Source: Trichocoleus sp. (GTDB taxonomy: Bacteria; Cyanobacteriota; Cyanobacteriia; Elainellales; Elainellaceae). From it: 40,000 nt of DNA. Every line of letters starts with the position of its first letter. The first letter of the stretch is position 1. The stretch covers positions 1,611 to 41,610 of the forward strand of contig DATNQD010000053.1 in the NCBI GenBank assembly GCA_036702865.1, given 5' to 3'. The translations under genes were made by a program, and so were the position numbers. The notes under the pieces were generated by a model. The model did not search any database, had not been told where the DNA came from, and saw nothing but the letters and a program-made list of their open reading frames with translations. Of the stretch, positions 7,646-37,099 are shown in pieces.

Positions 7646-7715
7646 ATTCGAGTCTCCTAAATTAATATAGCAATGTGAATCCAAGTGCTATACAGAATAT
7701 CTAAAGGCGTTGTGA

Positions 7716-9830: not shown

Positions 9831-10106
9831 GTGAACATTGATTTTCCTGTTATTCGACATTCTGTTCCTTACCCTGCTCCACCATTCTCTTGATGACGAA
9901 TTGAAGGTCTCACTTCACCTCAATCTCTTCGCTCACGAGTAATTCTTGAAATTTTTGGTACTGGTAGAGCTAATTTCCTTCTTCGGATTGAGCAATTTCA
10001 ACTATGAAAATTTTTCCAGTTCAAATGAACTACTATATTGACAACTTAGCTAGAATTTAGCCTTAACAAATTAAAACGCTACATCTATAGTCTTTCTAAA
10101 TACTGA

Positions 10107-10135
10107 TTCCATATCTAGCGTGATGAGGGTATAAG
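10107..10135 (+). promoter_or_regulatory. weak sigma70-type promoter candidate for the que-dpdA operon
   Basis: TTCCAT (10107-10112), a 17-nt spacer, then TATAAG (10130-10135), about 48 nt upstream of the queD ATG. Both hexamers are imperfect. Confidence 0.2.
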
Positions 10136-10182
10136 ATAACGAATCTGTCTACCTCTAAATCTGCCTAAGCTGAAGTAGCAAT

Positions 10183-10572
10183 ATGCGCAAGTGGAAGCTC
10201 ACCACGGAATTTACCTTTGATGCCGCTCACTATATCCGGGACTGCGACGGTCCCTGTGGGCGAATGCATGGACATACCTACCGGGTGCGGATTGAGGCAG
10301 CCTCTAGCCAGCTTCATGCCTCGGAGTACTGTCCTCATCCCGTTATGGTTGCTGATTTCCGCACGCTCCGTTGGGCAAAGCAAGACCTACTCAAAGGAGG
10401 GCTTGACCATTCGGTTCTAAACGAAGTTCTACCCGAAGGCTACGAAACCACTGCCGAGATGATCGCCCAACATATCTACGACAAGACGAAAAAGCAACTG
10501 CCCCCGGATGTGAAGCTAAAGGTTGCTGTGTCCGAAACGCCCAACTCTTGGGCGGAGTATGAGGACGACTAG
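10183..10572 (+). CDS. queD: 6-carboxy-5,6,7,8-tetrahydropterin synthase
   Basis: 129 aa. FTFDAAHYI ... CGRMHGHTYRVRIE ... LDHSVLNE is the PTPS/QueD zinc and catalytic-site pattern. It sits next to queE and queC. Confidence 0.9.
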   Translation: MRKWKLTTEFTFDAAHYIRDCDGPCGRMHGHTYRVRIEAASSQLHASEYCPHPVMVADFRTLRWAKQDLLKGGLDHSVLNEVLPEGYETTAEMIAQHIYDKTKKQLPPDVKLKVAVSETPNSWAEYEDD

Positions 10573-10583
10573 GAGTAACCGTT

Positions 10584-11222
10584 ATGACAAGCCTGATCCC
10601 CACTACCTCAACTTCTAAAACAGCCTCGGCAGCCTTGCCAGTTGTGGAAACCTTTCACTCAGTTCAAGGTGAGGGAGTTTGGGCAGGCACGAATGCCTTC
10701 TTTATTCGGCTAGCCGGATGTGACGTGGGATGTCCTTGGTGCGACACTAAGCATTCCTGGAATGCACGTCGCCATCCTCAACGCCTCACTACCGACCTGA
10801 TTACAGAAACTAAAGCGGCAAATCCGGCGATCGTTGTCATTACAGGTGGTGAACCCCTGCTGCATGACCTTTCCTCCCTCAGCAACGGGTTGAGAGTCGC
10901 AGAGCTGCGAGTCCATTTAGAGACCTCTGGAGCACACCCCTTCAGTGGCAGCTTCGACTGGATTACCTTCTCCCCTAAGCGATCCAAGCCACCTCACGAA
11001 AGCATTTATTCACGGGTAAGTGAACTGAAGGTCGTAGTTTCTGAACAGGCTGATCTGTCCTGGGCAGAGGATCAGGCAACCACAATCCCCACGGATGCAG
11101 TCCGGCTCCTCCAACCAGAATGGGGTACACCTGATAGCTACTCGCTCATCTTTGATTATGTTCTCAGCCATCCAGAATGGCGGCTCAGCTTACAGACCCA
11201 TAAATTTACTAATATTCGATGA
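10584..11222 (+). CDS. queE: 7-carboxy-7-deazaguanine synthase (radical SAM)
   Basis: 212 aa, with AGGAG at 10571-10575. ETFHSVQGEGVWAGTNAFFIRLAGCDVGCPWCDTKHSW has the QueE-type cluster motif at 10719-10742, followed by ITGGEPLL. Confidence 0.9.
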   Translation: MTSLIPTTSTSKTASAALPVVETFHSVQGEGVWAGTNAFFIRLAGCDVGCPWCDTKHSWNARRHPQRLTTDLITETKAANPAIVVITGGEPLLHDLSSLSNGLRVAELRVHLETSGAHPFSGSFDWITFSPKRSKPPHESIYSRVSELKVVVSEQADLSWAEDQATTIPTDAVRLLQPEWGTPDSYSLIFDYVLSHPEWRLSLQTHKFTNIR

Positions 11223-11234
11223 GGGGCGAAAACT

Positions 11235-11330
11235 ATGGCTCAGGTTGATTTATCCCCTCGTGAACTTTCCATCATCCTCGCGTCGTTGGAGTATTGGGCT
11301 GACAACCATGACGATGACGATCTCCTATGA
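11235..11330 (+). CDS. small acidic ORF, part A (31 aa); possibly the N-terminal half of a frameshifted ~77-aa protein
   Basis: The ATG at 11235 lies 8 nt after GAGGGG. Translation: MAQVDLSPRELSIILASLEYWADNHDDDDLL*. It fills the queE-queC gap and overlaps part B by 23 nt in another frame. Confidence 0.25.
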   Translation: MAQVDLSPRELSIILASLEYWADNHDDDDLL

Positions 11331-11466
11331 CCAAATGAGCGAGGACATGGAGCAGGAAACGTTTGGGGAAGCGGGACAACCTCGCAGTGATGAGATTGGT
11401 CAACTCTGCTGCAAGCTCTATCAGTTTGATAGCGGTGTCCAACCCATTTGGCGATCGCCAAGCTAA
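11308..11466 (+). CDS. small acidic ORF, part B (52 aa)
   Basis: This ORF is in frame +1 relative to part A. Translation: MTMTISYDQMSEDMEQETFGEAGQPRSDEIGQLCCKLYQFDSGVQPIWRSPS*. The track ORF 11095-11466 is this same frame, but its 5' part overlaps queE and is unlikely to be coding. Confidence 0.3.
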   Translation: MTMTISYDQMSEDMEQETFGEAGQPRSDEIGQLCCKLYQFDSGVQPIWRSPS

Positions 11467-11490
11467 TTACCCTTTACCGTGAGATGAACT

Positions 11491-12213
11491 ATGAGTGCTC
11501 CAAAAGCCGTTGTTTTATTGTCTGGTGGTCTGGATTCATCAACCTCTGCTGCTCAAGCGATCGCTGATGGTTACGAGTTGATTGCTCTATCGCTCCATTA
11601 TGGACAAAGGCACGATCGCGAACTCATTGCTGCTAAGCGGGTGGCTGAGCATTTGGGGATCAAGGAACACTTTGTGGTGGATGTGAATTTGGCGCAGTGG
11701 GGTGGTTCTGCTTTGACTGACCAGGCTGTGGATGTGCCGACTGACGGTGTGAAGCCTGGTGTGATTCCCATTACCTATGTGCCGGGACGGAATACGGTCT
11801 TTCTGGCGATCGCTCTCTCCTTGGCGGAAGCCAAAGGAGCAGAAGCAATTTACTTGGGGATCAATGCCGTAGACTATTCTGGCTATCCTGACTGCCGACC
11901 AGAGTACCTAGAAGCTGTCCAGCACCTTGCAACCCTCTCCTCTAAAGCTGGTTTGGAAGGGCATGCCCCCAAGCTTGTGGCTCCACTTGTTATGGATTCC
12001 AAAGTAGATATTGTGCATCGTGCGTTACAACTGGACGTTCCTATTCACCTCACCTGGTCTTGCTATCAAGGCGAGGATAAACCCTGCGGGTTGTGCGACT
12101 CTTGCCGGATTCGCGATCGTGCTCTGATTGACGCAGGTAGACCCGATCTGGCAACGTTAGTAGGGCGAGAATTGTACGAACAGGAGAACCAATGCGCTAC
12201 CCCCGTGTCTTAA
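11491..12213 (+). CDS. queC: 7-cyano-7-deazaguanine (preQ0) synthase
   Basis: 240 aa. It has [13 protein letters not shown] (PP-loop), TYVPGRN, and the C-terminal Zn cluster [20 protein letters not shown]. Confidence 0.92.
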
Positions 12214-14270
12214 TCATTACATCGTGTACCGGGGAAAAGCGATTTAAGCCAGAGAATCAACTCACTCAGAAAGATTTTATGCATGCTGCTCGACTCCGCA
12301 AAAGAGAAAAGCAGCTTTCTGAATTTATGGCTCCGGCAGGAGAAATGTATACCGGGATGCAGCACATCCAGTTGATGGAGGGTGTGCGAACTCTATGCAA
12401 AACTTTAGAGAAGCCTGTAATTGATGTAGTTATCATCTCAGCAGGCTATGGGTTGATTTCTGAAGATCATGTAATTGCACCCTACGAAGTCACTTTCAAC
12501 ACAATGAAAGGGCATGAGATAGATGCCTGGGCAAAACGATTAAAAATACATCAATCACTTGAAAAAGCAATTTCTGACTATGATTTGATTTTTGTTCTAT
12601 TAGGTGAAAAGTATTTAAGGGCAATTTCGTTACCACTCACTCTTTACGAGGAACAAGCTTGGATATTTCTAGCTCCAGGAAGCTGTTCTAACTTAATTCA
12701 AACATTAAATCCCCAAGCTTTTGTCCTGCCTCTCTCTAACGCTGAGGCAAAAAAGTACGGCTTTGGTTCAGTAGGGTTAAAGGGCTTTTTATTTAAGCAG
12801 TTTGCCTTGGTTGCTTCGCAGCAACCTGAGTTGTTTGAACAAATCCATCAAACCCCTTGTCATTTTCAAGATGTTATTGATAGAACTACTCAACTCGAAC
12901 TCGATTTAGGCTTGCCTAAATCAGTAGCAAAAAATAAATTTAAGCAAGTTACGAAGAAAACTAACAGGGACGAATTCGTCCCTATTCCTCATTTGCCGCC
13001 TGCGCCGAACATTCATTTGGGTGTGCAATACTTTATCCCGGAATGGGATGATCGTGTTGACCCAGACTATAACTTCTTAACAGATTCTTTTGGTTCTCCC
13101 GACCGTGATCCTTATGCTGATGATGTGTATGCTCATGAATTGTTTCTTCGTGCAAACTTTGGTCCAAACTATGATGGTGTTCTAATTTCTAAAGTTGTTA
13201 TCGATGAAAGTCAAGCACGACGAGCCAAAGTAGAAGCTCAAGGTGTACATAAGTTCATCCGCTTTCACGGCAAAATCATGGGAGATTGTGGAGCGTTTGG
13301 CTATGTAGAGGACGACGAGCCACCTTACAATACGGATGAAATTCTCGATTACTATGAACGTCTTGGATTTAACTATGGTGTTAGCATTGATCACCTAATA
13401 GTTGGTCCCTTTGCTGAACCTGGAGTTCGTGAGAAGCGCTACAATCTAACGCGCAAGAATGCAGAAGAGTTTTTAAAGAAATATCAGCAACGGGATTTTC
13501 AGTTTACCCCAATCGGCGTTGCTCAAGGGTGGGATCCAGAGTCCTACGCCAAGGCAGTCAAAGAGCTAATTGAAATGGGCTACGACTATATTGCTTTGGG
13601 TGGATTAGCCCGTGCCCAAAACCGTGAAATTCTGCCGATTCTGGAAGCGATTCATCCTCATCTAGTTCCTACGGTGCGAATGCATTTATTTGGAGTAGCG
13701 AGAATTAATTCAATTTCCGCCTTTCGGCATTTGGGTGTAACAAGTTGCGATTCTGCTAGTCCATTGCGGCAAGCTTGGCTTGGAGCAACTGCTAATTACT
13801 ACACACCGTCAGATAAGCGATACGCAGCTATCCGGGTTCCACCTGTAGACCATAAAGGTGGCTTACGGATTAAACGCCTGTTGGAAGCAAAGGTTGCAGA
13901 CTTTGAGACCCTACAGCAACTTGAAAAAGACGCTTTGCAATCGCTGCGAGAATTTGATGCTGGCAGGCTAGACCTGGAATCAACTTTACAAACGATCCTT
14001 GCTTACGATGAACTGCTGGAACTACCGAAAGATGGTAAAGCTGAACCAGAAGCCCAAGCTAAGCGACGAGCCAAACATGAGGTCTTGTATCGAGACGTTC
14101 TGGAAGACCAACCCTGGAAAACTTGCAACTGCCCCATCTGCCAAAAAATAGGAATTGAGGTAATTATTTTCCGCAACAATAACCGTAACCGACGACGGGG
14201 GTTTCACAATACTTATGTGTTTTATAAAAGATTTCAAGAGTTGCTAAAAATACCTACGAAGCAATCATAG
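12192..14270 (+). CDS. dpdA: DpdA-like DNA-guanine transglycosylase (TGT superfamily) fused to an N-terminal DUF6884-like domain
   Basis: 692 aa, with AGGAGAA at 12180-12186. The start overlaps the queC 3' end by 22 nt. The N-terminal ~215 aa read [53 protein letters not shown]. The C-terminal ~420 aa read MGDCGAFGY (Asp codon 13284-13286), [26 protein letters not shown]. The TGT Zn site is C645-x-C647-x2-C650...H672 (14124-14207). Confidence 0.7.
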
Positions 14271-14445
14271 AGGCAGGCTTATAGAACAATTGAATTACTA
14301 AGGGAGGGCAAAGCTTTCTGCTTGTCCGTGAAGTGTGTGTGAACAAAAAGACGACTCACCCGTCTTAGAGTGTTGAATTGCTTCAAGACGGGCACACTAG
14401 AGATAATACACTTCCGCCATCAGAATACTCCCTGTCTGGCAGGCC

Positions 14446-17400
14446 ATGCACTACCCAACCCCCCAAGTTCATCCTCTCTACATCCAGAGCGGTTCCCTGG
14501 TTCGCTCTCGCCTCAGCAGTTTAGGGGTTGGGAAAGTCTTATCTACTTCTGCGTCTGAAGCGTTAGTTGAGTATTTCGTCTCTATTGGAGAGCGAATCCA
14601 GAAAAAATCATCTTTTAATTCCTTAGAAAGAATTATTCTTCAGCGACATACTCGCTGCTATGTGTGGTTAGAGGAACATGAGGTCTGGCAGTCTGGCAGA
14701 ATCGCAACTTGGCACGATGACGATCGCCGCTACGAAGTCCACCTACCAGACAAGGGTGTGTACTACGCGACTGAGGCAGAAATTTACGTTCGCTGCGATC
14801 GTCCGATCGAAGATCCTACAGAAGTATTGATTATGAAGGGGCAAGAAACCCCCTTCTTCCATAGCCGACGGTCTGCTTTAGTTCGCTGCCTAATTGAGCA
14901 ACGGGCAGTCAGTCATGGCATGCCTAGTCTTCTTTCATCCAATGTTGATCTGTATCCTCACCAGGTGGAAGTTGTGCGGCGAGTTTTAGAAGATCCAATC
15001 CAGCGCTATCTTTTGGCAGATGAGGTTGGATTAGGCAAAACGATTGAAGCTGGTGTGATTCTTCGGCAGTATCTGCTGGATGAACCTGACGGGAAGGCAT
15101 TAATCGTTGTCCCTCGTCCCTTACTTAGGCAATGGAAACAAGAGCTGGAAGCTAAATTTCATTTAACTGATCAGGTAGAACTGCTTACAGTTGAAGATCT
15201 TCCTGCTTACCAATACACCACCCCGCCTGGCTTTCTGATTGTGGATGAAGCCCAGCATATTGCTGCTTTGGCAGAATCTACTGCCTTACAACAGCGGGGG
15301 TATTTTACAGTTATCCAACGACTCGCTCACCAAGTCGATTGCCTTCTGCTTCTTTCTGCAACACCTGCCCTCAACCATGAGCGGACTTTTTTGGCAATGT
15401 TACATCTCCTCGATCCAATTACTTACCGTTTGGAGGACATCATAGGCTTCAAGGAGCGGGTTCACCTGCGGCAAGACATTGGGCGAATACTACTCTCCTT
15501 TAAGGAAAGCGCTCCATCGTTTGTATTGAGAGCAAGTGTTGGAAAATTAAGAAGCCTTTTTGCCCAAGATCCTCGTCTGTTAACTTTAATCGAACAACTT
15601 GAGCATTCTCTAAGCTCACCAGAGGCTAATCCTACTGAACGAGGACGAGTGATCCGAGCGATCCGTACCCACATCAGCGATACCTACCGACTTCATCGCC
15701 GTATGTTGCGAAATCGTCGCGATACTGTGGAGGATGTTTTGTTGGATCAATCCAAAGCAAAGCTTCAGGTAGAGTATGACCTGGATGAACGATCGCCTAC
15801 GGTTCAGGAGTATTTAGATGAATGGCGTATCCGTGCGATCGCAGCCGCCGCCGGAGAGGATGACCCCTACTACCATCAACTTCGCCAGGTATTCTTGCTG
15901 CTGTTCAGTACCAGTGGAACTTGGCTAACCTTTTTAGAGTGGGTACTTTTGGCTCGACTCAATGGCGAAGTTGCCCCTGCTCTTATCAAGGAATTGGAGG
16001 CAACGTCTCTTGATTTGCTACTAAACACTCCCCAGTTTCTTGGTGAAGATGATATCCTTCAGAGTCTTCTTGACGTGATTCAGCAACCGTCTGAATATGG
16101 CGATCGCATTGAACACCTTCAGATGGTCTTGGAAGCCTGTGTCAAGAGTTCTAGACAGAAACCTGCGAAAATTGTAGTTTTCACAGGTTTTACCCACACT
16201 TGTCGGGAGTTGGTGCAGCGTCTATCTAGCACGTTGGGTAAACGAGCGATCGCAACTTATCAAGTAGGGCAATCGCTTGATGAGATAGAGAAGAACACAA
16301 ATCAGTTTAAGGATGATCCAAGTTGTTGTGTTTTGGTTTGCGACACTTCGGGAGAAGAAGGGCATAACTTGCAATTCGCCGACTGGATCATCCATTTCGA
16401 TCTACCTTTATCACCAAATCGAATTGAACAGCGAAACGGGCGATTAAGTCGGATCGGGCGAAATCGTTTACTCCAGTTTGTTGTTTTTGCTGGAGCTGAT
16501 ACAAGTGACAGCCTTCATGGGGCTTGGTATGAAGTCCTCAACAGTGGTTTCAAGATTTTTCAAGAATCAATCGCCAGTCTTCAATTTCTTGTGGACAGAA
16601 AGATACCTGATTTAGAAACTGCCTTATTTCAACTAGGAGCATACGGATTATCTGAGGCAATTCAATTAATTGGTGGTGAGATTACTGCTGAAAAAATCAG
16701 GATTGATGAACAAAACGTACTCGATGAAATTGATTCTTTAGAAGAGGGTGCAACTCAGTATTTTAAAGCCTTAGATGATTATGACGCTCGTCATCAGGAT
16801 ATCCAAGAGGCTGTGGAAGCTTGGCTTTGCCAAACCTTGAAGTTTAGGAGGTATGAAGACGATGACGCACCCGAAATCATTCGGTATAAGCGTTCTTCTG
16901 AAACTTTGATTCCAGCAGATGACTTAATTAAATACTTTAGAGGTTATCTCAATCAGCCCGGAACTTACCAGCGTCGTAAGGCTTTGCAACACGAAGAAGT
17001 GGTTCTTCATCGGATTGGTGAGGGGTTGATTGAGACTCTAAGTGAATATATTCACTGGGATGATCGAGGTCAGGCATTTGCCTTATGGCGACATGACGAA
17101 ACCTGGCCAGCAGAGGAAGGGATGGAATGGGTAGGTTTTCGCTTCGACTATATTGTTGAAGCCAATTTAACCCTTGTTAGTCAGGTATTTGAGCAGCATG
17201 GTGCGAATTATGCTAGCCAAGTTGCATTGAAGCGCCGTATGGATGCCATCTTTCCACCTATCGTCGAAACTATCTTTCTTGATACTCGTATGAATGTTGT
17301 GAAGGATCAATATCTTCTGAACATTCTGCAACAGCCTTACTCCAAAAAGCGCCAACCAACCCATGACTATAGCCTTAGCAAAGGCAGAGTGCCAATTATC

Positions 17401-17745
17401 GACGAATTTGTAAGTAGAGATGACTGGGAAAACTTGTGTCGCACTTCGCGGGAACAGTCCGCAATATCATTACGAAATCACCCTGATTTTTACAATCGCT
17501 GTCAACACTACGCGACTCAAGCAAAGCGGCAATTAGGCAATCGCTTGGAGCAACTTCAACTTCGGCTAGAACGCCAGTCTCAAGCGGATGTTGATGCATC
17601 TCTAATTCAAGAGATTGGGATTGAACGAGCGTTAAAACAGATTTTAGTCGATGGCATTCAGCATCCTCTGATTCGACTTGATTCCATTGGCTTTTACATT
17701 GTCTCTGGGCGATCACCCTGGCAAGATGAGGAGGTCATTGGTTAA
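14446..17745 (+). CDS. dpdE: SNF2/RapA-family ATPase, DpdE homologue
   Basis: 1099 aa. Motifs: ADEVGLGKT (15016-15042), LIVDEAQH, LLLSATP, GEEGHNLQ and QRNGRLSRIG. It is the first of six genes linked by start/stop overlaps, in the same order as dpdE-J of the Salmonella dpd island. Confidence 0.7.
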   Translation: MHYPTPQVHPLYIQSGSLVRSRLSSLGVGKVLSTSASEALVEYFVSIGERIQKKSSFNSLERIILQRHTRCYVWLEEHEVWQSGRIATWHDDDRRYEVHLPDKGVYYATEAEIYVRCDRPIEDPTEVLIMKGQETPFFHSRRSALVRCLIEQRAVSHGMPSLLSSNVDLYPHQVEVVRRVLEDPIQRYLLADEVGLGKTIEAGVILRQYLLDEPDGKALIVVPRPLLRQWKQELEAKFHLTDQVELLTVEDLPAYQYTTPPGFLIVDEAQHIAALAESTALQQRGYFTVIQRLAHQVDCLLLLSATPALNHERTFLAMLHLLDPITYRLEDIIGFKERVHLRQDIGRILLSFKESAPSFVLRASVGKLRSLFAQDPRLLTLIEQLEHSLSSPEANPTERGRVIRAIRTHISDTYRLHRRMLRNRRDTVEDVLLDQSKAKLQVEYDLDERSPTVQEYLDEWRIRAIAAAAGEDDPYYHQLRQVFLLLFSTSGTWLTFLEWVLLARLNGEVAPALIKELEATSLDLLLNTPQFLGEDDILQSLLDVIQQPSEYGDRIEHLQMVLEACVKSSRQKPAKIVVFTGFTHTCRELVQRLSSTLGKRAIATYQVGQSLDEIEKNTNQFKDDPSCCVLVCDTSGEEGHNLQFADWIIHFDLPLSPNRIEQRNGRLSRIGRNRLLQFVVFAGADTSDSLHGAWYEVLNSGFKIFQESIASLQFLVDRKIPDLETALFQLGAYGLSEAIQLIGGEITAEKIRIDEQNVLDEIDSLEEGATQYFKALDDYDARHQDIQEAVEAWLCQTLKFRRYEDDDAPEIIRYKRSSETLIPADDLIKYFRGYLNQPGTYQRRKALQHEEVVLHRIGEGLIETLSEYIHWDDRGQAFALWRHDETWPAEEGMEWVGFRFDYIVEANLTLVSQVFEQHGANYASQVALKRRMDAIFPPIVETIFLDTRMNVVKDQYLLNILQQPYSKKRQPTHDYSLSKGRVPIIDEFVSRDDWENLCRTSREQSAISLRNHPDFYNRCQHYATQAKRQLGNRLEQLQLRLERQSQADVDASLIQEIGIERALKQILVDGIQHPLIRLDSIGFYIVSGRSPWQDEEVIG

Positions 17746-20288: not shown

Positions 20289-21160
20289 GCGTCCTGAAAC
20301 AAGTGCTAGCCACACCTAGTAGAGTCAAAGGGGTAGTCCGCTATCTACTGCAATGTAGAAAGCAACAGGAAAAAATAGACACACTAGAGAAAATCCTGTC
20401 CCCCGAAACTCTGATTAGTAAGGGAGAAGATAAGAAAGTATCACGCGATATGGTGCATTCCACAATATTAGAGTGTATCAAGATGGGGCTTTTGGAACGG
20501 GAAGATGAGGTTGTAAGGTTGCATCCTATCCTTTCGTTAAAAGATGACACAGTTCTACCAAATATCCTGTTGAGTCTAATACTCTCCCCCGAAAATTCTG
20601 AGAATCATGATTTAGCGATAGTAATAGCGTGGTATTTGGCCCAGGATTTCTACGAAGCTCCCAAAAACTGGCAGGAAGCTGAAGAGAAACTGAAGCAAAT
20701 TGATTCTGAATTACTAGGACTCGACCGCACGCGGTTTGACCAGTTTGAATACTGGGCTTGTTACTTGGGACTCGCTTGGCAACATAATTTAGGAAAAAAT
20801 AGAAATTCTGTTCTTGTACCTGATCCAACCGCCTGCTTAAAACAACTGCTACCTAATTTATTTGAACAGGTCGGTGAGCCACTTTCTCTGCCAGAATTTG
20901 TGAATTGTTTAGCAAAAACCTGTCCTATCTTTGAGTTAGGGCGTTTTCGGGAAGACATCGAGAACAAACTTAATCGAAGACAATTGAATCATCTTTCCTC
21001 TGTAACTACAATTTCACTTTTACGATTACAAGATGAAGGATTAATTCGGCTTTCTAAGCCCTCAGATAGTGAGATTTTTGTTCTGAATGATGGTGAAGAA
21101 GTACAGCGTATTTCTCACATTACTTGGTACGGTACAAAAAGAGGAGCAGGAAGGCCATGA
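20285..21160 (+). CDS. dpdG: hypothetical protein at the DpdG position
   Basis: 291 aa, with an ATGA overlap onto dpdF (20285-20288). I recognise no motif. The assignment rests only on position and size within the dpdE-J order. Confidence 0.45.
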   Translation: MSVLKQVLATPSRVKGVVRYLLQCRKQQEKIDTLEKILSPETLISKGEDKKVSRDMVHSTILECIKMGLLEREDEVVRLHPILSLKDDTVLPNILLSLILSPENSENHDLAIVIAWYLAQDFYEAPKNWQEAEEKLKQIDSELLGLDRTRFDQFEYWACYLGLAWQHNLGKNRNSVLVPDPTACLKQLLPNLFEQVGEPLSLPEFVNCLAKTCPIFELGRFREDIENKLNRRQLNHLSSVTTISLLRLQDEGLIRLSKPSDSEIFVLNDGEEVQRISHITWYGTKRGAGRP

Positions 21161-24100
21161 CATTTACCAAATATGCTTGCTGGCATTTAGACAGGGTACG
21201 CAATGTCATGAACGTTGAAGCGACATTGCCTTCCGATCCGACCTTTATGGCGACACATCAATCTGTTCCTATGTATCGCCAAAACTTAACGGAGAAAGCT
21301 GCAAACATTGAATATGATGAAGTCACCTTTTTGCAGGATTTCTTGGCATCTCCTGATTTTGCCTTTGTACCCGTGTTAGGAGATTCGGGAACAGGGAAAT
21401 CTCACTTAATTCGTTGGCTCTATATTCAAATCAAGCAATTACGCTCAGATTTGAATCACAGAATACTGCTAATCCCTAAAGTAAAAACTAATCTACGCGA
21501 CATTCTTGATCTGCTTCTACAGGATTTAGAAGGACCAGAATTTGATGAATATCGTAAACGCTTAAGAGCAACCTCAACAACTCTCACTGATATAGAGGCG
21601 CGACAACAATTACTGGCTAATTTGGCGATCGCAGTAGGGCGCAAAGCACTAGACTATCCTGCTAATCTTTCAGAGATTCAGGCGTATTTGGTTGAGGCTC
21701 TACCCGATTTCCTGAATGATCCTTATTTTCGTAGGCACTGGCTGAAAGATGAGGGTATTATTCATCGACTAGTTATCCATACGCTAGGTCACCGAGACTC
21801 TGTTGAACCAGTAGAAGAACGGCGACAGTTTGCGCTTGATGACTTACCGCTCAGTGCATCAGACTTGAAAAACGCCAGTGCCCAAGCTCGTGATTTCTTT
21901 GCTTTCCTAATTGGCAACGAAGAAGTTCAGCAGGAGACAGTGAAATGGCTTAATCGTCACCTAGATGAAGCTATTGCTCGTGTCCTTAATTTAGGGCGAG
22001 AAGACCTACAGCGCTTGATGTTAGATGTGCGACGAGCTTTAGCTAAACAAAATATTGAATTAATTCTATTGATCGAAGACTTCGCTAAGCTACAAGGAAT
22101 TGATCGAGAAGTTCTTGAATCTGTACTAGCGCGTACACAGCAGGATAGCAAAGAACCTCTATGCACGATGCGAACGGCCCTAGCTTGTACAACTGGCTAT
22201 TTTCGAAGCTTGCTAGATACTATTCGAGGGCGAGTTGAATTCCTTATTAACTTAGACATAGAAACAACTGATGATCAGATTTTGATGCCTCATTTGCTTC
22301 AGTTAGTTACTAAGTATTTAAACACAGTTCGTTTGGATGAAAATCAAATCCAAAGTTGGTTTGAGAATGGCGAGGATCGCTTGGGGGAAAACCCTGTTCC
22401 AATTGCATGTGCAGACTGTCCTTTTCGTGAACCATGTCATACAGGGTTTGGAGAGATTAATGGAATCGGGCTTTACCCCTTTACGGTTAAAGCTTTGGAA
22501 AGAATGCACGACCGCATCAAGGGAAACAACTTTAACCCGCGTAGTTTAATTAAGAATGTTCTACGTCATACACTGGAGTATCACAGACATGATCTAGAAA
22601 GAGGGTATTTCCCTTCTATAATGCTGCGAGAGCATTTTGGTCAATCCACTATTGACCCTCGAACTCGTCAAGAAATCGAACGACGCGACTCACAAAACGC
22701 TCGTCGCCGTGAAGTGCTACTGGATTTTTGGACAGACGGGCAGGAACTGCGTGACCTTTCCAATGAAATTCATACTGCTTTCGATTTACCTGCGTTGGGT
22801 GTGGAGATACAACCAACGCTTACCCCAAGAATTGTTGCTAAGGTCGCAGAAGCTCCAGCAATAGTGACAGTTTTTAAGCCTGGTTATGATTCCACTCCGG
22901 AGCTAATATCCCAGACAAGTTTCCCACCAGCAGAATTACTTCCTGCTCTAGACATGTTAAGAGCCTGGAGTAATGGTGCTCAACTTCCTCAAAATTTGGC
23001 TCAGGAGTTACGTACTCTGCTGTACGAAGCGATTAAGCAGCACATCGATTGGGATGCAGAGTTACTTCTTTTTAGTCAGGTTGGAAAACTGTTTGACAAG
23101 GCTCGTAACATCAACTTCCAAAATGCAGCCACAGACTCTGAAGTTAAATCTGGCATAAAACTAATATTGCCTTTAAACTCTCAAGATCTCGACAATACGG
23201 TTATTGCTCTAAGGGCATTACTCTTCTACAACTATTACAAAACTTGGAAGTATCCTGGTGGAACTGCTGATTTTCGTGCATATGCGCGGCAGTTAGAGAA
23301 ATGGAGTCAGTGGGTTCTGCAACAAATTTACAATCGGCCTCGACAATCGGGTGAACTTTGGAATCCTGTGCCTGCTGCTGCTGAGTTGATCGTGATCGGA
23401 GCCAGGATGGCGGGTTGTTCAATGGATTCAACGGAAGATCTGGTCAATGCTGTATTTGTCAAACCTGAGGATTCAGAACTAGACAAGCGATCAGCTACTT
23501 GGCGAAAACTATTTACAACTATCACTACAAATTATGACCAAATGAAGAACCGCGCTAGTTTACGAGACATCATTGACAGTCGTATTTCCTGCACAAAAGG
23601 AGGTGCAACAGGCTTTAAGGTCATTGACGCAGCTCAACTCATTGCTCCTTTAAGGGCGGTGGCACAAGGTTGGCAACCCAGGTGCGAAATTCCGGAGGAC
23701 TTTAGGGCAGAGGAGTTTAAAGCAATTCAACAAACGCGTGAACAAGTTGACTTATTACTGTCGCAAGCAGTCTTCGAGGAGCGTGACCGTCAATTGACTG
23801 TTTATCGTCGCTTAATTGCAGAATTAGGCAGTGATTTTATGCAAAAGGATGTTGCTGAGGCTTTACAGCAAACTATTCAGACAGTTCGTGATGCGGGTGT
23901 ATCAGGCATCGCAAATTTGAAGGGAGTAGAGGAGGCAGTTGAAATATTCAGGGGGGCAAGATTAAGAGATTGGATCAACACGATGAAACGGGTTGAACAT
24001 GAAACTGAGGTTGGTTGTCTTCTGTCACAATTAAGTGGCACATCCCATCGCCCCATTGAAGTGATTACACAATTTCTTGATCAAGCCAGAAACTTTATAG

Positions 24101-24252
24101 ATAAATCACTCAATCAAACTCAAAACAAAATAACTCAACTTGAGCAAGGGGGCGGCAAAGACCTTCAAGCTACTGAACAGGCGATTCAACAAGGACTTTC
24201 AGAACTGCTGGAATTTGTTGAAGAGATTCAAGGAGAAACACTATGCTTTTAG
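21157..24252 (+). CDS. dpdH: large P-loop NTPase at the DpdH position
   Basis: I prefer ATG 21157, which makes an ATGA overlap with the upstream stop and has GAGGAGCAGGAAGG upstream. The track's 21124 start is a TTG. Walker A GDSGTGKS is at 21379-21402 and a Walker B-like LILLIEDF follows. The product is 1031 aa. Confidence 0.55.
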   Translation: MTFTKYACWHLDRVRNVMNVEATLPSDPTFMATHQSVPMYRQNLTEKAANIEYDEVTFLQDFLASPDFAFVPVLGDSGTGKSHLIRWLYIQIKQLRSDLNHRILLIPKVKTNLRDILDLLLQDLEGPEFDEYRKRLRATSTTLTDIEARQQLLANLAIAVGRKALDYPANLSEIQAYLVEALPDFLNDPYFRRHWLKDEGIIHRLVIHTLGHRDSVEPVEERRQFALDDLPLSASDLKNASAQARDFFAFLIGNEEVQQETVKWLNRHLDEAIARVLNLGREDLQRLMLDVRRALAKQNIELILLIEDFAKLQGIDREVLESVLARTQQDSKEPLCTMRTALACTTGYFRSLLDTIRGRVEFLINLDIETTDDQILMPHLLQLVTKYLNTVRLDENQIQSWFENGEDRLGENPVPIACADCPFREPCHTGFGEINGIGLYPFTVKALERMHDRIKGNNFNPRSLIKNVLRHTLEYHRHDLERGYFPSIMLREHFGQSTIDPRTRQEIERRDSQNARRREVLLDFWTDGQELRDLSNEIHTAFDLPALGVEIQPTLTPRIVAKVAEAPAIVTVFKPGYDSTPELISQTSFPPAELLPALDMLRAWSNGAQLPQNLAQELRTLLYEAIKQHIDWDAELLLFSQVGKLFDKARNINFQNAATDSEVKSGIKLILPLNSQDLDNTVIALRALLFYNYYKTWKYPGGTADFRAYARQLEKWSQWVLQQIYNRPRQSGELWNPVPAAAELIVIGARMAGCSMDSTEDLVNAVFVKPEDSELDKRSATWRKLFTTITTNYDQMKNRASLRDIIDSRISCTKGGATGFKVIDAAQLIAPLRAVAQGWQPRCEIPEDFRAEEFKAIQQTREQVDLLLSQAVFEERDRQLTVYRRLIAELGSDFMQKDVAEALQQTIQTVRDAGVSGIANLKGVEEAVEIFRGARLRDWINTMKRVEHETEVGCLLSQLSGTSHRPIEVITQFLDQARNFIDKSLNQTQNKITQLEQGGGKDLQATEQAIQQGLSELLEFVEEIQGETLCF

Positions 24253-24950
24253 CGGACTGCCAACGCCTGAGAGATTTAGCTCAACATTCTGTTGGGCTAA
24301 AAGAGCGATTAGAGCAGGCTAACTTGTTTATTAAAAGGCAGGAGCAAATACAGGCAGCGTTAGATCGATTACAACCAGCAGTTGTTGCGTTTCGAGTATT
24401 GCGCGATCGCAACTTGATTACCTTGGAATTAAGTCAACAAACTGAGAGCTTTCTAGCTACGCTTCAACAAATCAATACACAGTTTTGTGCTCAACCCACC
24501 TGGATTTTAGAAACTAAAAATTTTAATCCTAAGCCTTTCCAAGCTCAAGTTGATTCTCTAGCAAATTCTTTAGAGCAAAACTTAAGTAAAGCATGGGCTA
24601 CCTACTGTGATCAGCGCATGCCGAGCAGCAACACTGAAATGCTTACGGTTTTGGGTAGGATCGCAACCCTCAAACATACTGTACAGACCATTCAAATACT
24701 CTCTGATGTGATTAAAAAAGTGGCGTACCCCAAAAGTACGGAAGAGTTCGAACAAATTGAGAAGAAGCTAACGCAATTATCAGAGTCTTGGAATAGCCTT
24801 AAGTCTGATGATATGCCCAATATGGTTCAACGTTTTTTGAGAGCGGCAGCAACCGAAGGCGCACCTGTAACGTTGTTAACAGAGGAGGTGAAGGACTGGC
24901 TAATTCAGCGCGGGCTTATTGATTCATTCCAGATCAGATCAATCAGTTGA
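24243..24950 (+). CDS. dpdI: hypothetical helical protein at the DpdI position
   Basis: 235 aa. The start overlaps the upstream gene by 10 nt. I recognise no motif; the assignment is by position only. Confidence 0.4.
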   Translation: MLLADCQRLRDLAQHSVGLKERLEQANLFIKRQEQIQAALDRLQPAVVAFRVLRDRNLITLELSQQTESFLATLQQINTQFCAQPTWILETKNFNPKPFQAQVDSLANSLEQNLSKAWATYCDQRMPSSNTEMLTVLGRIATLKHTVQTIQILSDVIKKVAYPKSTEEFEQIEKKLTQLSESWNSLKSDDMPNMVQRFLRAAATEGAPVTLLTEEVKDWLIQRGLIDSFQIRSIS

Positions 24951-24959
24951 ACCTATTAA

Positions 24960-27900
24960 GTGAAGTTGATCATGGGTGATTCTATAGACAGTTTAGTTCG
25001 TGATTTCCTGAATTCTTTAGAGAAGTTGGAAATTCGCCTTCTTGCGTGGGGCGTGGTGGATATTAGGGGAGGCTTCAGGGAAGAAGAAATCATAGAGCTT
25101 GCCGAGAATTTTATTGAGGTACAGCAGGCTGAGATAGATCCAGTGGATCTTGTGGCAGAGTTAGTGAACCGATGCCTGTTAATTGAACTGAATTCAAGAA
25201 GCGATCGCATCTACCGAACTCGTATGGCTGAGGCAGTCCGTCTTTTTGCGCGACTGCGGCAACTTTTTCCCAATCGAGATTGGCAAACCTCTTCAACGCT
25301 GGTAGCAGACTATCGCTTCTCTTTACGACAGCGAGTTTACCCACGGCGCAGCATCAATCCAGAACAAGTTGTTCAACGGATCGAAACAGACAAGTTGCTG
25401 ACTCCCACTCAGCGTGATGCATTAGAGGCAATGTTGCGCTCGCCTAACCGCACTTTGGAACTGGCGGATTTTCAGCTTCGAGCTACTGCTCGCATGTTAC
25501 GGGATCTCAATAGCCCGAAAAGTCGCGGCATGATTGTTTGTGCAGGAACAGGAACAGGCAAGACTTTGGCGTTTTACTTGCCTGCCCTGACTTATATTGC
25601 CGGATTGGTGAGAAAAACATTTTGGACAAAAGCGATCGCCATTTATCCACGCAATGAACTGTTGAAGGATCAGTTTTCTGAAACTTATACTGAGGCGCGC
25701 CGTTTAGATTCAGTGCTTACTGCTCAAGGGCAACGCAAGATTTTGATTGGAGCCTTCTTTGGTTTAACTCCTATAGAAGCCACGCTAGAAGACAAACGAC
25801 TCAAGGAGAAATGGACATCAGAGCGGGATGGCTTCACTTGTCCTTACCTCCGTTGTCCGCAATGCAACGGGGCTTTAAGTTGGAAGCGGGAGGATGTAGC
25901 CAAACGCAAGGAGCAATTGACCTGTTTAGACCGTGACTGTGGCGTTGTGATTCGTGACGATGAAATTATTCTGACCCGCAATCGCATGACCAAGTTTCCC
26001 CCCGATCTACTTTTCACTACGACCGAGATGCTCAACCGCTTGATGGGCGATTCTCAATATGGGCACATTTTTGGTGTGGGAGCAGACAAGACACCGCAAA
26101 TTGTTCTGCTGGATGAAGTTCACACCTATACCGGAATTCATGGAGCACAGGTTGCCTATCTACTACGGCGTTGGCAGCATGTCGTTGGTAAGCGAGTTCA
26201 GTTCACTGGCTTGTCAGCGACGCTACGCAGTGCAACTGAATTTTTCACACAGCTTGTTGGTTTAGCACCAGGAGCAGTGGAAGAAATTTCTCCTGGTGAT
26301 GACATGCAACCGGAGGGCATGGAATACCTCTTAGCATTGCGAGGTGATCCTGTGTCAGGAACTAGCTTGCTTTCTACGAGCATCCAAGCAGCAATGCTGT
26401 TGAGGCGAGTCCTTGATCCCTCAACCGATCCTCCTAGCGATGGCACTTATGGTTCTCGTGTGTTTGCTTTCACCGATGACCTTGATGTCACCAATCGCCT
26501 CTATCACAACTTGCTGGATGCAGAAGGGCGTAATAGTCGGCAACAGCCAATCAAACAGCCTCTAGCAGCGTTGAGGAATCTTCATGACGACGATCGTCTT
26601 ATTGCTGGGCAGTCGTGGTCTTTATGCCGTGATATTGGGCATAACTTAACGACTCACTTACAGGTTAGTCGGACGAGTTCTCAAGATACTGGGGTTGATC
26701 GACAAGCCGATGTAATCGTAGCAACCGCAGCACTGGAAGTTGGGTTTAATGATCCTAATGTAGGAGCCGTGATTCAGCACAAAGCTCCTAAAGATATGGC
26801 ATCCTTTCTACAGCGTAAGGGACGAGCAGGACGTAGCAGGGCAATGCGTCCCTGGACGGTCGTGGTGCTGTCTGATTATGGGCGCGATCGCATTGCTTAT
26901 CAAAGCTACGACTTGCTGTTTGATCCCACCCTTGAAGAGCGATTACTTCCTATCGCCAACCGCTATGTTATTCGTATCCAAGCCACATTTGCTTGCATGG
27001 ACTGGATCGCACAGCAAATGCAACGTGCTCCCCAAGGGAGTATCTGGAAAGACTTTTCTAAGCCTTCTTCCTTCTCACCGCAGCAGCAGCGTCAGCAGCA
27101 AGCTAAAACGATAATTCAATCTATCCTTAAAAACGAAAAACAGCAGCAAGCTCTAGAAAGCTACCTTCAGTCTGCACTCAAGATTTCTTGGGGGGAGACA
27201 CAAGCCATTCTGTGGGGGCCTCCCAGAGCATTGATGACAGCGGTTTTACCCACCCTCCTCCGACGACTAGAGGCAAATTGGCAACGGCTCCCATTGCCAG
27301 GGGAACCCGAGTTGGACTATCACACGGACGATCCCTTACCTGACTTTGTACCGGCTAGCCTCTTTAGCGACTTATTACTACCTGAAGTTCGCATTGTTAC
27401 ACCTCCTGCCACCCAGCAGACGACAGAATCCGATGAATACTATCTACCGATCCTTCAGGCTCTCAAAACTTTTGCACCTGGGCGTGTTTCCCGGCGTTTT
27501 GGGGTGCAACGCAGCCAGATTAGCCATTGGATTGCACCACCTGAGTTGATCGCTGGACATCAGACTTTATTGATCGACCAATACTGTGCTGAGTTTGAGG
27601 AAGCTGGCACATTCCAGATTTGGCAGCAGGAAGGAGTTGCAAATATTCGCTGTATTCGTCCTTGGACACTGAGGGTTGCTCAGATTCCGTCGGAAGTTAG
27701 TGATAAATCGAATGCACAACTGCAATGGCATACACAAATTGTTCCACCAACCAGCGGCAATTCATTAGACTTACCTCAAGGATCGCTATGGTTAGAGATT
27801 GTTTCTGAGCTTTGTAGCTTTACTCATAACCAGCAAAATCCCTTAGAGGTAAGACGTTTTGCTCTGGGTTCTCAGGCAAATCTACGAGTCAAGCGCAATC

Positions 27901-29525
27901 GCCAGGTTCAAGAATTAGAAACATCGATTCAGTTTATTGAGGCTGAGAGTGGCAAACCCGCAGGAGTTGGATTTACTCAAACGGTGGATGGTTTGATATG
28001 CCGTTATCGGATTCCAGATGGTTTTACGATTAGCCTCGATGATGACAATCATGCCAAAGTCTATTCATTCCGCAGTTCTTACTTCAAACATCGTATTTTG
28101 CAGGATCCTCGCTTAGATGGAATTGCCAACATCTTCCAGAGAGGATGGTTGCACCAGATCTATCTGTCGATGCTGGTTGCCCGTGCTCTAGAAAGAGATA
28201 TTACCTTGCCTGAAGCTTTCGCAACGCTGCAAGCAGAAGGGGTAGGGCAAGCAATGATTGCGGTTCTAGATGGGATTTTTCAGACACTTGCCGTTGAAGA
28301 ACAAAATGACGAGGAGTTTGGAGGGGATTTGGGTGAAGATGAGGAACAACCAGACCCTCACTTGCCTCCTGGTCGTCAACCTACCCATGAAAGATTGCGG
28401 GAGCTGTGTAACACACCCCTCATTCAAGAGGTTTTGAATGATTTAGCACAAATTCTGTGGAATTCACCCGATGCCGTGTGGGATGAGTGGGCAAAACAGA
28501 GATTTAGTGCAACGCTAGGTGGTGCTTTATTAGAAGCCTGTCGTCAACTTTGCCCCCAGTTTGATTCGGGAGATTTGCTGCTGGATCTTGATCCTGGTCC
28601 GCGATCGCCTGATAGCCCTGCCCAACTTGAAGGCATTGAAGAAATCTGGTTGACCGAGGCAAGTCCAGGTGGCGGTGGTGTAATTGAGGAGATCTTGCAA
28701 CGCTATGCAGCAGATCCAGCAGGCTTTTTCAGATTAGTCGAGAGTGCGCTGGAACCTTCGGACTTTGAAATCATTGATTCAGAGTTGACAAATCTATTGG
28801 AGTTAACGGATTCAGATGACTCGATTTGTGATGCTCTCGCTCAGGTTCGAGGTGCAGAGTCCTATCAATCCTTAACGATCGCTAGTGAAAATCTGAGACG
28901 GACTTTGTCACATCGGGGTATCCTCGTCACGCCCACTGTAATGACAGCCGTTCATGCTCGCGTTTTGACTCCGGGCAGTAACGTTGAAACCGATCGCCAA
29001 TTGCTGAATCTGATTCGTGACTGGCAAGCAGAAGAAGATCGTTTAGGCATCGAGATTGATGCACGAGTGTTTGCTTACATCGCCAGCACTCAAAGCCGTT
29101 TCACGGATGCACTGCCGCCAGAAACGAGGAACAACCCTTATGTCTGCTTTCAGGTACTCTATGGTCGTTTGTGGCTCCGAGGCAGCTTAATTCGCAATCG
29201 AGCCATCTCGTTCTATAACCCGTTTGCGATCGTGCCAGAAGCCGATCGAGAAATCCTGCTAGATGTGCTGCAACCCGCAGAAAATGTGGTGAAGTTAGAG
29301 GAACCCAACTGGCGTGAGCAGGTTGATCAGGGATTAAAGACCGTAGGGGCTGTTTCCTTAATGGCGAAGTTGACTGATCGACAAGCCTTAAAGCGAGCCG
29401 CTTTGCAATTAATGACTGAACCCGTAGACGTTGGATTTCTCAATGTATACCCTGTTGTCGAAGGCTTCCGCAGAACTGTACAGGGATATATTGTGAGGTT
29501 ACGAATTCGGGAGGCAGTGCAATAA
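24960..29525 (+). CDS. dpdJ: giant DEVH-box helicase with inserted Cys-rich zinc ribbon, DpdJ homologue
   Basis: 1521 aa from GTG 24960 (an alternative start is ATG 24972). Motifs: AGTGTGKT (25542-25565), LLDEVHTY, GLSATL, VATAALEVGFNDPNVGAVIQH, QRKGRAGR. The Cys cluster CPYLRCPQC...CLDRDC is at 25839-25940. Confidence 0.65.
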   Translation: MKLIMGDSIDSLVRDFLNSLEKLEIRLLAWGVVDIRGGFREEEIIELAENFIEVQQAEIDPVDLVAELVNRCLLIELNSRSDRIYRTRMAEAVRLFARLRQLFPNRDWQTSSTLVADYRFSLRQRVYPRRSINPEQVVQRIETDKLLTPTQRDALEAMLRSPNRTLELADFQLRATARMLRDLNSPKSRGMIVCAGTGTGKTLAFYLPALTYIAGLVRKTFWTKAIAIYPRNELLKDQFSETYTEARRLDSVLTAQGQRKILIGAFFGLTPIEATLEDKRLKEKWTSERDGFTCPYLRCPQCNGALSWKREDVAKRKEQLTCLDRDCGVVIRDDEIILTRNRMTKFPPDLLFTTTEMLNRLMGDSQYGHIFGVGADKTPQIVLLDEVHTYTGIHGAQVAYLLRRWQHVVGKRVQFTGLSATLRSATEFFTQLVGLAPGAVEEISPGDDMQPEGMEYLLALRGDPVSGTSLLSTSIQAAMLLRRVLDPSTDPPSDGTYGSRVFAFTDDLDVTNRLYHNLLDAEGRNSRQQPIKQPLAALRNLHDDDRLIAGQSWSLCRDIGHNLTTHLQVSRTSSQDTGVDRQADVIVATAALEVGFNDPNVGAVIQHKAPKDMASFLQRKGRAGRSRAMRPWTVVVLSDYGRDRIAYQSYDLLFDPTLEERLLPIANRYVIRIQATFACMDWIAQQMQRAPQGSIWKDFSKPSSFSPQQQRQQQAKTIIQSILKNEKQQQALESYLQSALKISWGETQAILWGPPRALMTAVLPTLLRRLEANWQRLPLPGEPELDYHTDDPLPDFVPASLFSDLLLPEVRIVTPPATQQTTESDEYYLPILQALKTFAPGRVSRRFGVQRSQISHWIAPPELIAGHQTLLIDQYCAEFEEAGTFQIWQQEGVANIRCIRPWTLRVAQIPSEVSDKSNAQLQWHTQIVPPTSGNSLDLPQGSLWLEIVSELCSFTHNQQNPLEVRRFALGSQANLRVKRNRQVQELETSIQFIEAESGKPAGVGFTQTVDGLICRYRIPDGFTISLDDDNHAKVYSFRSSYFKHRILQDPRLDGIANIFQRGWLHQIYLSMLVARALERDITLPEAFATLQAEGVGQAMIAVLDGIFQTLAVEEQNDEEFGGDLGEDEEQPDPHLPPGRQPTHERLRELCNTPLIQEVLNDLAQILWNSPDAVWDEWAKQRFSATLGGALLEACRQLCPQFDSGDLLLDLDPGPRSPDSPAQLEGIEEIWLTEASPGGGGVIEEILQRYAADPAGFFRLVESALEPSDFEIIDSELTNLLELTDSDDSICDALAQVRGAESYQSLTIASENLRRTLSHRGILVTPTVMTAVHARVLTPGSNVETDRQLLNLIRDWQAEEDRLGIEIDARVFAYIASTQSRFTDALPPETRNNPYVCFQVLYGRLWLRGSLIRNRAISFYNPFAIVPEADREILLDVLQPAENVVKLEEPNWREQVDQGLKTVGAVSLMAKLTDRQALKRAALQLMTEPVDVGFLNVYPVVEGFRRTVQGYIVRLRIREAVQ

Positions 29526-32453: not shown

Positions 32454-32617
32454 AACTTGCCAGTGAGGTGCGATTGCCAAGGATGTAAGCTTGTGAACCT
32501 AATGATAATTTTCTTCGCATAACCATTGCCAAGTCTTGTATTTTCCTAATGAACTCGATGACTCGATGATCTGAATCTTGATCTGTCCAGCTTTATGTAA
32601 TCAAAAAGGAAGTGTTT

Positions 32618-33388: not shown

Positions 33389-33428
33389 ATGCTTTAGAGT
33401 CCGAGACAACAAATCTTCATGCTGCAAA

Positions 33429-37075: not shown

Positions 37076-37099
37076 AGATACCATTCCTCATTAATTTAG

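Follow-up and report, generated by a model that had tools for sequence, protein, structure and literature searches.

We studied a window of 40,000 nucleotides from the cyanobacterium Trichocoleus sp. (assembly GCA_036702865.1, contig DATNQD010000053.1, positions 1,611 to 41,610 of the forward strand), which carries a dpd island, i.e., a set of genes for marking DNA with 7-deazaguanines and restricting DNA that lacks the mark. The island was confirmed at window positions 10183-29525, with ten open reading frames (ORFs), all on the + strand and located as in an earlier annotation made from the sequence alone (hereafter, the original prediction). Both the ORF map and the NCBIfam Dpd scores uphold the description given there of a cyanobacterial dpd island with its own queD, queE and queC and a dpdE-J block. 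What had been overlooked is that the dpdA gene begins with a DpdC-like domain (hereafter, dpdC::dpdA). Judging from the sequence comparisons described below, we consider it moderately likely that this is a Dpd island that has lost its distal end and now stops at dpdJ, that its fusion protein would lead to 7-amido-7-deazaguanine in DNA (dADG), and that the system is still functional. Dpd ranks with the largest known restriction-modification systems, and the working of its restriction half is unsolved.

The DpdC-like domain in front of DpdA

The original prediction had found no DpdC in the window and had expected the mark to be 7-cyano-7-deazaguanine (preQ0) in DNA, dPreQ0, rather than dADG. The first statement is overturned, and the second made less likely, by the gene at 12192-14270 (+), whose 692-aa product combines a DUF6884 domain with a DpdA domain. 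The DpdC-like DUF6884 domain (12192-12905, +) takes up residues 1 to ~238 and continues into DpdA through an in-frame linker without a stop codon (12906-13025, +). In an AlphaFold2 model, the predicted local distance difference test score exceeds 90 over most of residues 1-230; the model is confident over residues 1-238, whereas residues 240-283 are of low confidence and disordered. The Pfam DUF6884 model (PF21818) matches residues 45-149 at 51.6 bits (gathering score 30), accompanied by a weak YaaA/DUF328 match, and the DpdC models of PADLOC also match the domain (E 2.7e-10, 6.1e-10 and 1e-5). As a canonical DpdC reference we used the protein encoded upstream of dpdA-dpdB on the Enterobacter cloacae plasmid pPOL9A, which reaches 470 bits on PADLOC DpdC. 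A 30-sequence profile of the window domain aligned to this reference with an hhalign probability of 94.5% (E 8e-8).

The window domain and the canonical DpdC have three motifs in common, namely CxxxK, [IL]SAGxG and PYxxTF. These read C12-T-G-E-K16, I82-S-A-G-Y-G87 and APYEVTF in the window, and TTCTNGK, ILSAGLGLL and VVPYKATF in pPOL9A DpdC when its in-frame upstream extension is included. Across 36 homologues, residues C12, K16, S83, A84, Y86, G87, P97, Y98 and F102 are invariant. The CxxxK and LSAxxG motifs have been proposed by Pfam as the DUF6884 active site (PMC11701544), and DpdC has been assigned either to DUF328 (PMC5699537, PMC12839542) or to DUF6884 (GATOR-GC paper, 10.1101/2025.02.24.639861); PMC11701544 is a further source for a DUF328/DUF6884 assignment. 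By these similarities the N-terminal domain of the 692-aa protein is a member of the DpdC family, with a predicted DpdC activity. Since a DpdC-family domain is fused to DpdA, dADG rather than dPreQ0 is the more likely predicted mark, if the island writes one. NCBIfam gives no match for this domain; it gives none even for the canonical DpdC of the Enterobacter plasmid, so its silence on the window DpdC is uninformative, and the check with NCBIfam Dpd models that the original prediction had proposed could not have revealed it. We also considered a hidden DpdB-like domain in the N-terminal extension and rejected it, as the whole extension can be aligned with stand-alone DUF6884 proteins of ~230 aa, after which comes the disordered linker.

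The DpdA domain, a DNA-guanine transglycosylase (13026-14270, +), is matched by NCBIfam DpdA over residues 279-683 at 476 bits (cut-off 200) and aligns over its full length with the structure of DpdA from Salmonella enterica serovar Montevideo (7UI4; E 4e-88). With key residues taken from PMC10164549 (numbering offset 20), the equivalents of Asp95, Asp130, Asp256 and Phe99 are conserved, as is the C-terminal CxCxxC cysteine cluster; compared to the Salmonella enzyme, His181 is replaced by Gln and Leu236 by Phe. From its residues, the DpdA domain looks catalytically competent.

The dpdE-J block, missing partners and the right end of the island

The fusion gene is followed, after 175 nt, by dpdE (14446-17745, +), encoding an SNF2-family ATPase of 1099 aa that matches NCBIfam DpdE over its full length (1073 bits, cut-off 500; PADLOC 828 bits), and by dpdF (17745-20288, +), encoding a RecQ-like DEAH helicase of 847 aa (NCBIfam DpdF 892 bits, cut-off 550; DEAH at residue 291). 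Then come dpdG (20285-21160, +; 291 aa; NCBIfam DpdG 116 bits, cut-off 80; PF28110 DpdG among precomputed Pfam matches) and dpdH (21157-24252, +), which encodes a P-loop ATPase of 1031 aa (NCBIfam DpdH 848 bits, cut-off 450; Walker A GDSGTGKS at residue 75) and whose longest ORF begins at a TTG at 21124. The last two genes are dpdI (24243-24950, +; 235 aa) and dpdJ (24960-29525, +), which closes the island and encodes a YprA-family DEVH helicase of 1521 aa (NCBIfam DpdJ 1941 bits, cut-off 800; DEVH at residue 385). The original prediction had chosen the comparison of the six downstream proteins with the DpdE-J models, beforehand, as a test able to refute it, and the outcome went in its favour: DpdE, DpdF, DpdG, DpdH and DpdJ exceeded their cut-offs, and DpdI aligned over its full length at 44.7 bits (residues 2-239 of 239; cut-off 150). 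DpdI is assigned from its position and this weak match; PADLOC DpdI did not match it, the DpdI-position protein of the canonical Enterobacter island is likewise under the NCBIfam cut-off, and the window protein shares 34-43% identity with the proteins encoded between dpdH and dpdJ in loci of cyanobacteria. Overall, DpdA, DpdE, DpdF, DpdG, DpdH, DpdJ and QueC exceed the curated NCBIfam cut-offs with full-length alignments, and PADLOC's Dpd models give the same assignments for DpdA, E, F, G, H and J. The six genes had been described as joined by start/stop overlaps, which is correct for dpdE/F (1 nt), dpdF/G (4 nt), dpdG/H (4 nt) and dpdH/I (10 nt) but not for dpdI and dpdJ, which are separated by a 9-nt gap.

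The original prediction had also seen no ParB-like DpdB, no DpdD and no DpdK of the PLD type, and this stands for the window. Among its sizeable ORFs we obtained no NCBIfam, Pfam or PADLOC match to DpdB/DGQHR, DpdD or DpdK. Six-frame tblastn of the window, with references drawn from Enterobacter, Allocoleopsis, Scytonema, Nostoc and Leptolyngbya, returned no match with four DGQHR references, nor with DpdD and DpdK references from Enterobacter, Nostoc, Leptolyngbya and, for DpdK only, Allocoleopsis. A further 1.5 kb of the contig, upstream of the window, carries genes for an acetyltransferase-like protein and an HNH protein and a small ORF without annotation, and no DpdB, DpdD or DpdK; in total, the search reached 11.7 kb upstream and 10.5 kb downstream of the island.

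The same gene order, queD-queE-small ORF-queC-dpdC::A-dpdE-F-G-H-I-J, is found in Leptolyngbya sp. GGD (GCA_026735145.1, JAPQKE010000007.1; loci L050 and L053), with amino acid identities to the window of 92% for QueD, 90% for QueC, 82% for DpdC::A, 75% for DpdE and 77% for DpdJ (QueE lies within 75-92%), and of only 37-57% for DpdF-I. Unlike in the window, dpdJ of this strain is followed by dpdK (PADLOC 200 bits), dpdD (308 bits) and a PD-(D/E)XK and UvrD pair; the strain also carries a pair of genes for a 289-aa protein and a DndB/DGQHR protein, the latter 7.5 kb beyond dpdJ. On the chromosome of Geitlerinema sp. PCC 7407 (CP003591.1; L052), dpdE-J is not followed by dpdK or dpdD, as in the window. 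Here dpdJ is followed by a gene for an alpha/beta hydrolase with 85% amino acid identity (L052:15352-16116) to the window hydrolase at 31614-32381 (+), which lies outside the system and serves as a chromosomal marker of the right flank, so that the two strains have this flank in common. Geitlerinema differs from the window in that its DpdE is only 58% and its DpdF-I only 41-57% identical; no dpdC::A of this strain was among the best 120 of 1434 homologues, and the sequence compared there covers dpdE-J and the right flank. In other cyanobacterial loci, dpdK and dpdD lie 0.1-4.5 kb past dpdJ in seven cases (L008, L009, L021, L029, L033, L040 and L041, of which L021 and L041 show dpdK only, the locus sequence ending there; L032 has only a partial dpdK match), and are absent within 4.7 kb of dpdJ in L026, L030 and L049.

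The window island thus looks like a derivative that has lost everything beyond dpdJ, probably in one event, which would remove dpdK, dpdD and the DGQHR gene together. To assume that the distal end was lost is more parsimonious than to assume a set designed as minimal, because Leptolyngbya GGD, with 75-92% identity to the window in QueD, QueE, QueC, DpdC::A, DpdE and DpdJ, carries dpdK, dpdD and DGQHR after dpdJ; the term "minimal variant" used earlier is therefore doubtful, and "truncated" describes the island better.

None of the ten genes is shortened relative to its model. The Nei-Gojobori ratio of nonsynonymous to synonymous substitution rates (dN/dS) between window and Geitlerinema was 0.126 for DpdJ (dS 0.67) and 0.149 for the flanking hydrolase (dS 0.55), and dN/dS was 0.02-0.13 for queD, queE, queC, dpdC::A and dpdE compared to L050 and L051. 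This argues for maintenance of the dpd genes under purifying selection, and since the genes are intact and apparently so maintained, we think that the reduced island probably still works.

The island appears to be assembled from parts of different history. Its left part resembles L051, L055 and L057 and its right end Geitlerinema, and its middle is unlike anything retrieved. Across dpdF-I and the first ~100 codons of dpdJ (17745-25300), amino acid identity to every close relative is 37-58%, compared to 75-95% on either side, in dpdC::A and dpdE and in the remainder of dpdJ. DpdJ illustrates this boundary, with 87% identity to Geitlerinema overall, ~95% over residues 600-1521 (its C-terminal two thirds) and 51-65% over the first 100 residues; in the same comparison, DpdF is 57%, DpdG 47%, DpdH 55% and DpdI 41% identical. 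The drop across the block recurs against Leptolyngbya GGD and L051, where DpdE stays at 75-82%. No retrieved homologue of DpdH exceeds 57% identity, and dpdG and dpdI are the most variable genes within the block. On this pattern the central block looks like a swapped or fast-evolving cassette. Its position between conserved dpdE and dpdJ makes it a candidate site of target or partner specificity. The G+C content is 48-51% at 10001-12000 (queD to queC/dpdC) and at 25001-29000 (dpdJ), compared to 40-45% in most of the window, which fits a mosaic or foreign origin of parts of the island.

Blocks of dpdE-F-G-H-I without a DpdJ match downstream or a dpdA upstream in the available sequence were seen in many Microcoleus, Tychonema and other cyanobacterial loci (L014-L020, L022, L024, L028, L031, L034, L036, L037, L039, L043, L046 and L048). 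The reader block is thus often unlinked from the writer, or accompanied by another helicase. A genome scan with DpdH alone yielded no confirmed relative, but an alignment-based repeat did recover relatives.

Occurrence of the fusion and the remaining genes

The DpdC::DpdA fusion is not peculiar to this window and is widespread among cyanobacteria, with more than 100 protein clusters. Among the best 120 of 1434 homologues, nearly all are ~690-720 aa long with both PF21818 and PF01702, and all organism-named entries are cyanobacterial. A metagenome scan gave 80 loci with the fusion in nearly all, and the fusion is retained in 14 of 14 aligned homologues. It is also present on plasmids of Allocoleopsis PCC 7113, Scytonema NIES-4073, Nostoc NIES-3756 and Picosynechococcus PCC 73109. 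We found it in at least four architectures, counted over 35 fusion loci with at least 8 kb of downstream sequence: it is followed by dpdE-F-G-H, as in the window, in nine; it adjoins an inverted dpdD-dpdK-dpdJ in eight; another nine have a helicase, a second TGT and a helicase; and three have a DGQHR gene nearby, two of these beside the 289-aa partner. A neighbouring DGQHR gene is thus the exception within the fusion clade. The fusion itself was not described in the literature searched, the primary papers of 2016 and 2018 lying outside that search. A 2025 GATOR-GC survey required both dpdA and dpdB and found one cyanobacterial island, which was scored as lacking dpdC and all restriction genes (PMC12235509). 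With such a requirement, and with the sole cyanobacterial island scored dpdC-less, DpdC and cyanobacterial Dpd are under-counted. The cyanobacterial lineage with DpdC::DpdA is large, and surveys and rule-based annotation miss part of it on both counts.

Several observations on these loci stand apart from the window island. The module of two DEAD/DEAH helicases around a short second TGT (~315 aa) recurs beside the fusion on plasmids and in the nine metagenome loci counted above (examples are L002:12789-18450, L006:3832-9403, L063, L076 and L113), and we found no description of it in the literature searched. A protein of ~289 aa without a family match is kept together with a DGQHR/DndB-like gene at L053:21251-23167, L001:2922-6175 and L007:21310-23243; the pair is 56-70% identical at the amino acid level across three genera and is conserved on the Allocoleopsis and Scytonema plasmids. 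The 289-aa protein also occurs without its DGQHR partner, between dpdC::A and dpdE, in L060, L065 and L067, and it may belong to the cyanobacterial writer as a component so far overlooked. For protein P0140 (1205 aa), precomputed Pfam matches list DndB together with TGT and DUF6884, and PADLOC confirmed the DpdC and DpdA parts only; if real, this would be a possible three-way DpdC-DpdA-DGQHR fusion. A decayed relative, L010:1-4524, retains queE, queC and a 259-aa DpdC-like ORF that is 80% identical to the window domain; it has lost the DpdA part, in whose place come an ORF of other origin and a gene for a DDE transposase. In L011, a 400-aa protein beside a stand-alone DUF6884 gene was considered as a split-off DpdA and rejected, as it has no similarity to DpdA.

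The left part of the window island starts with queD (10183-10572, +; 6-carboxytetrahydropterin synthase), which matches Pfam PTPS at 105 bits and NCBIfam QueD at 76.5 bits, under the cut-off of 89, and whose product is 92-95% identical at the amino acid level to those of the same-position genes in L050 and L051. After 11 nt follows a queE-like gene for a radical SAM enzyme (10584-11222, +; 7-carboxy-7-deazaguanine synthase). Its top five NCBIfam matches are QueE models, all under their cut-offs, with a best score of 123 bits and an alignment to TIGR04508 over 3-208 of 208; in Pfam it matches Radical_SAM, which it barely cleared, and Fer4_12. In the 268 nt between queE and queC lies a small conserved ORF (11235-11466, +), recognised earlier as split: the intact 76-aa ORF at L051:9045-9275 matches window 11235-11309 (residues 1-25, 88%) and 11326-11463 (residues 31-76, 89%) in different frames. 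The same split is present in a JGI metagenome contig that is 100% identical to window 2279-24270. The small ORF has no Pfam, NCBIfam or PADLOC match, and in L010, which is more distant, the queE-queC gap is only 11 nt. queC (11491-12213, +; preQ0 synthase) is matched by NCBIfam TIGR00364 at 221 bits (cut-off 150) and Pfam QueC at 240 bits, and overlaps dpdC::dpdA by 22 nt. folE is absent from the window, as noted earlier. At gathering thresholds, Rfam gave no match across the window, so that the queE-queC interval holds neither a preQ1 riboswitch nor any other known RNA. Scans for promoters and terminators gave counts at or below chance and are not used as evidence; this includes a weak sigma-70-like site at 10063-10091, upstream of queD, that was not above chance.

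Outside the island, defence-type genes lie upstream at window 21-3087, encoding an HNH_2 protein and a pair of TcmP (three-Cys-motif partner) and radical SAM proteins. The HNH_2 protein is similar to the C-terminal end of a restriction endonuclease that binds phosphorothioate DNA (75 bits, under the cut-off), and the TcmP gene matches the PADLOC candidate system PDC-M30A. Between these genes and queD (4508-9830) are genes for a CHAT-domain protein, a divergently oriented trypsin-like peptidase (654 aa) and a pentapeptide-repeat protein of 704 aa. On the other side, 32612-39579 holds probable cell-wall genes that are unrelated to the island, coding for a DUF2272 protein, a protein with SH3 and glycoside hydrolase 75-like domains, two SH3-repeat proteins and a protein whose C-terminus is peptidoglycan-binding-like.

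Competing explanations and likeness to known systems

In the mechanism that we propose, preQ0 would be made by a housekeeping FolE together with QueD, QueE and QueC, and the DpdA domain would exchange guanine in DNA for preQ0, upon which the tethered DpdC domain would hydrate the nitrile to the amide in place, giving dADG. The DpdE-J ATPase/helicase block would act as the reader, scanning DNA for absence of the mark. Without DpdK and DpdD, this reader may borrow a nuclease or may block DNA without cutting it; either the missing partners would be encoded elsewhere, or the writer would be independent of DpdB and the reader would have no need for the PLD nuclease. DpdE has been reported to resemble BrxHII/DrmD, DpdH/I to resemble BrxC, and DpdJ the YprA-family helicase DrmA (Bell et al., 10.1101/2025.09.15.676423); side matches in NCBIfam and PADLOC also point to likenesses with BREX and DISARM. 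A stronger version, which we regard as speculative and improbable, is that DpdC::DpdA is a self-sufficient writer without a DpdB-type ATPase, in which DUF6884 would bind DNA, flip the base and hydrate the nitrile, and that DpdE-J would exclude unmarked DNA in a BREX-like, non-cleaving way, with dpdF-I setting recognition.

The picture of a purpose-built minimal Dpd variant that lacks DpdC and writes only dPreQ0 is very unlikely to be right. The window has no stand-alone DpdC ORF and no NCBIfam DpdC match, and some validated dpd islands have been reported without dADG (10.1101/2025.02.24.639861), but the N-terminal 238 residues of the DpdA protein constitute a DpdC-family domain with all family-invariant residues, and a database that fails on canonical DpdC also cannot speak against one here. 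We give somewhat more, though still little, credence to a decaying remnant, in which a single deletion took dpdK, dpdD and the DGQHR pair and left writer and reader dead with genes not yet degraded. The closest complete relative does have dpdK, dpdD and DGQHR just past dpdJ, Salmonella DpdA depends on DpdB, the small ORF carries a frameshift, and L010, with its DpdA part lost and an insertion element in place, is clearly decayed. On the other side, the ten window genes are full length with low dN/dS in those that could be compared, and Geitlerinema, which has this right flank too, likewise shows no dpdK or dpdD after dpdJ; a dS of 0.67 for a DpdJ that is still 87% identical implies a long period over which dead genes would have had to remain undamaged. 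That the set is complete but split, with DGQHR/DpdB, DpdD and DpdK encoded elsewhere in the genome, is about equally unlikely in our estimate. The distance between dpdJ and DGQHR in Leptolyngbya GGD, the dpdK and dpdD genes 3-4.5 kb past dpdJ behind inserted genes on Nostoc plasmids, and the many cyanobacterial dpdE-I/J blocks without an adjoining dpdA are in keeping with this explanation, whereas none of these genes lies within the stretch searched on either side of the island, and the genes past dpdJ are ordinary chromosomal ones, including the hydrolase in common with Geitlerinema.

Several points weigh against our preferred reading of a truncated and still working island with a fused DpdC. 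The frameshift in the conserved small ORF is a sign of some decay. The link of DUF6884 to the YaaA-like "cantaloupe" fold was not reproduced, as a Foldseek search against the PDB gave no significant match. The search for DpdB, DpdD and DpdK covered the window and the 1.5 kb upstream of it; it did not extend to the ~9.4 kb by which the source contig (a 50.9-kb Logan contig, SRR13207077) runs past the window, to the ~19 kb by which the identical JGI contig does so, or to other parts of the genome. The estimates of purifying selection compare sequences that are mosaic and are no proof that the whole system functions. Finally, ATPase activity of DpdB is needed for DpdA in Salmonella (PMC10164549), and since a DGQHR gene adjoins the fusion in some relatives and DndB is listed within P0140, the writer of the window island may be inactive.

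Variants that lack DGQHR, DpdD and DpdK and are apparently under purifying selection can be viewed as natural deletion experiments: should they mark and restrict DNA, neither DpdB nor the PLD nuclease would be universally required. This is directly checkable in Geitlerinema PCC 7407, which is in culture and has been sequenced completely.

Compared to the dpd island of S. enterica serovar Montevideo (dpdA-K; Thiaville 2016, Yuan 2018, Gedara 2023, PMC10164549), the window island has the same catalytic Asp residues in DpdA, the same DpdE-F-G-H-(I)-J order, a DpdC-family domain and the preQ0 precursor; it differs in that DpdC is fused to the N-terminus of DpdA, queD, queE and queC are in the operon, and DpdB, DpdD and DpdK are missing. 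The plasmid systems of Allocoleopsis, Scytonema, Nostoc and Picosynechococcus encode a fusion of 698-714 aa (59-60% identical for the two that were aligned in full), annotated as dpdA in three of the four records and as tgt in that of Scytonema. Two of them pair it with the 289-aa protein and DGQHR, a DpdJ-like helicase and a PLD protein, and two with a helicase, a second TGT and a helicase; unlike the window, none of the four has dpdE-I. Phage DpdA works without DpdB. Phage DpdA systems (Hutinet 2019, PMC6884629), BREX and DISARM offer analogies only, for a writer without DpdB and a reader without a PLD nuclease; the proteins of the window are members of the bacterial Dpd families and not of those systems.

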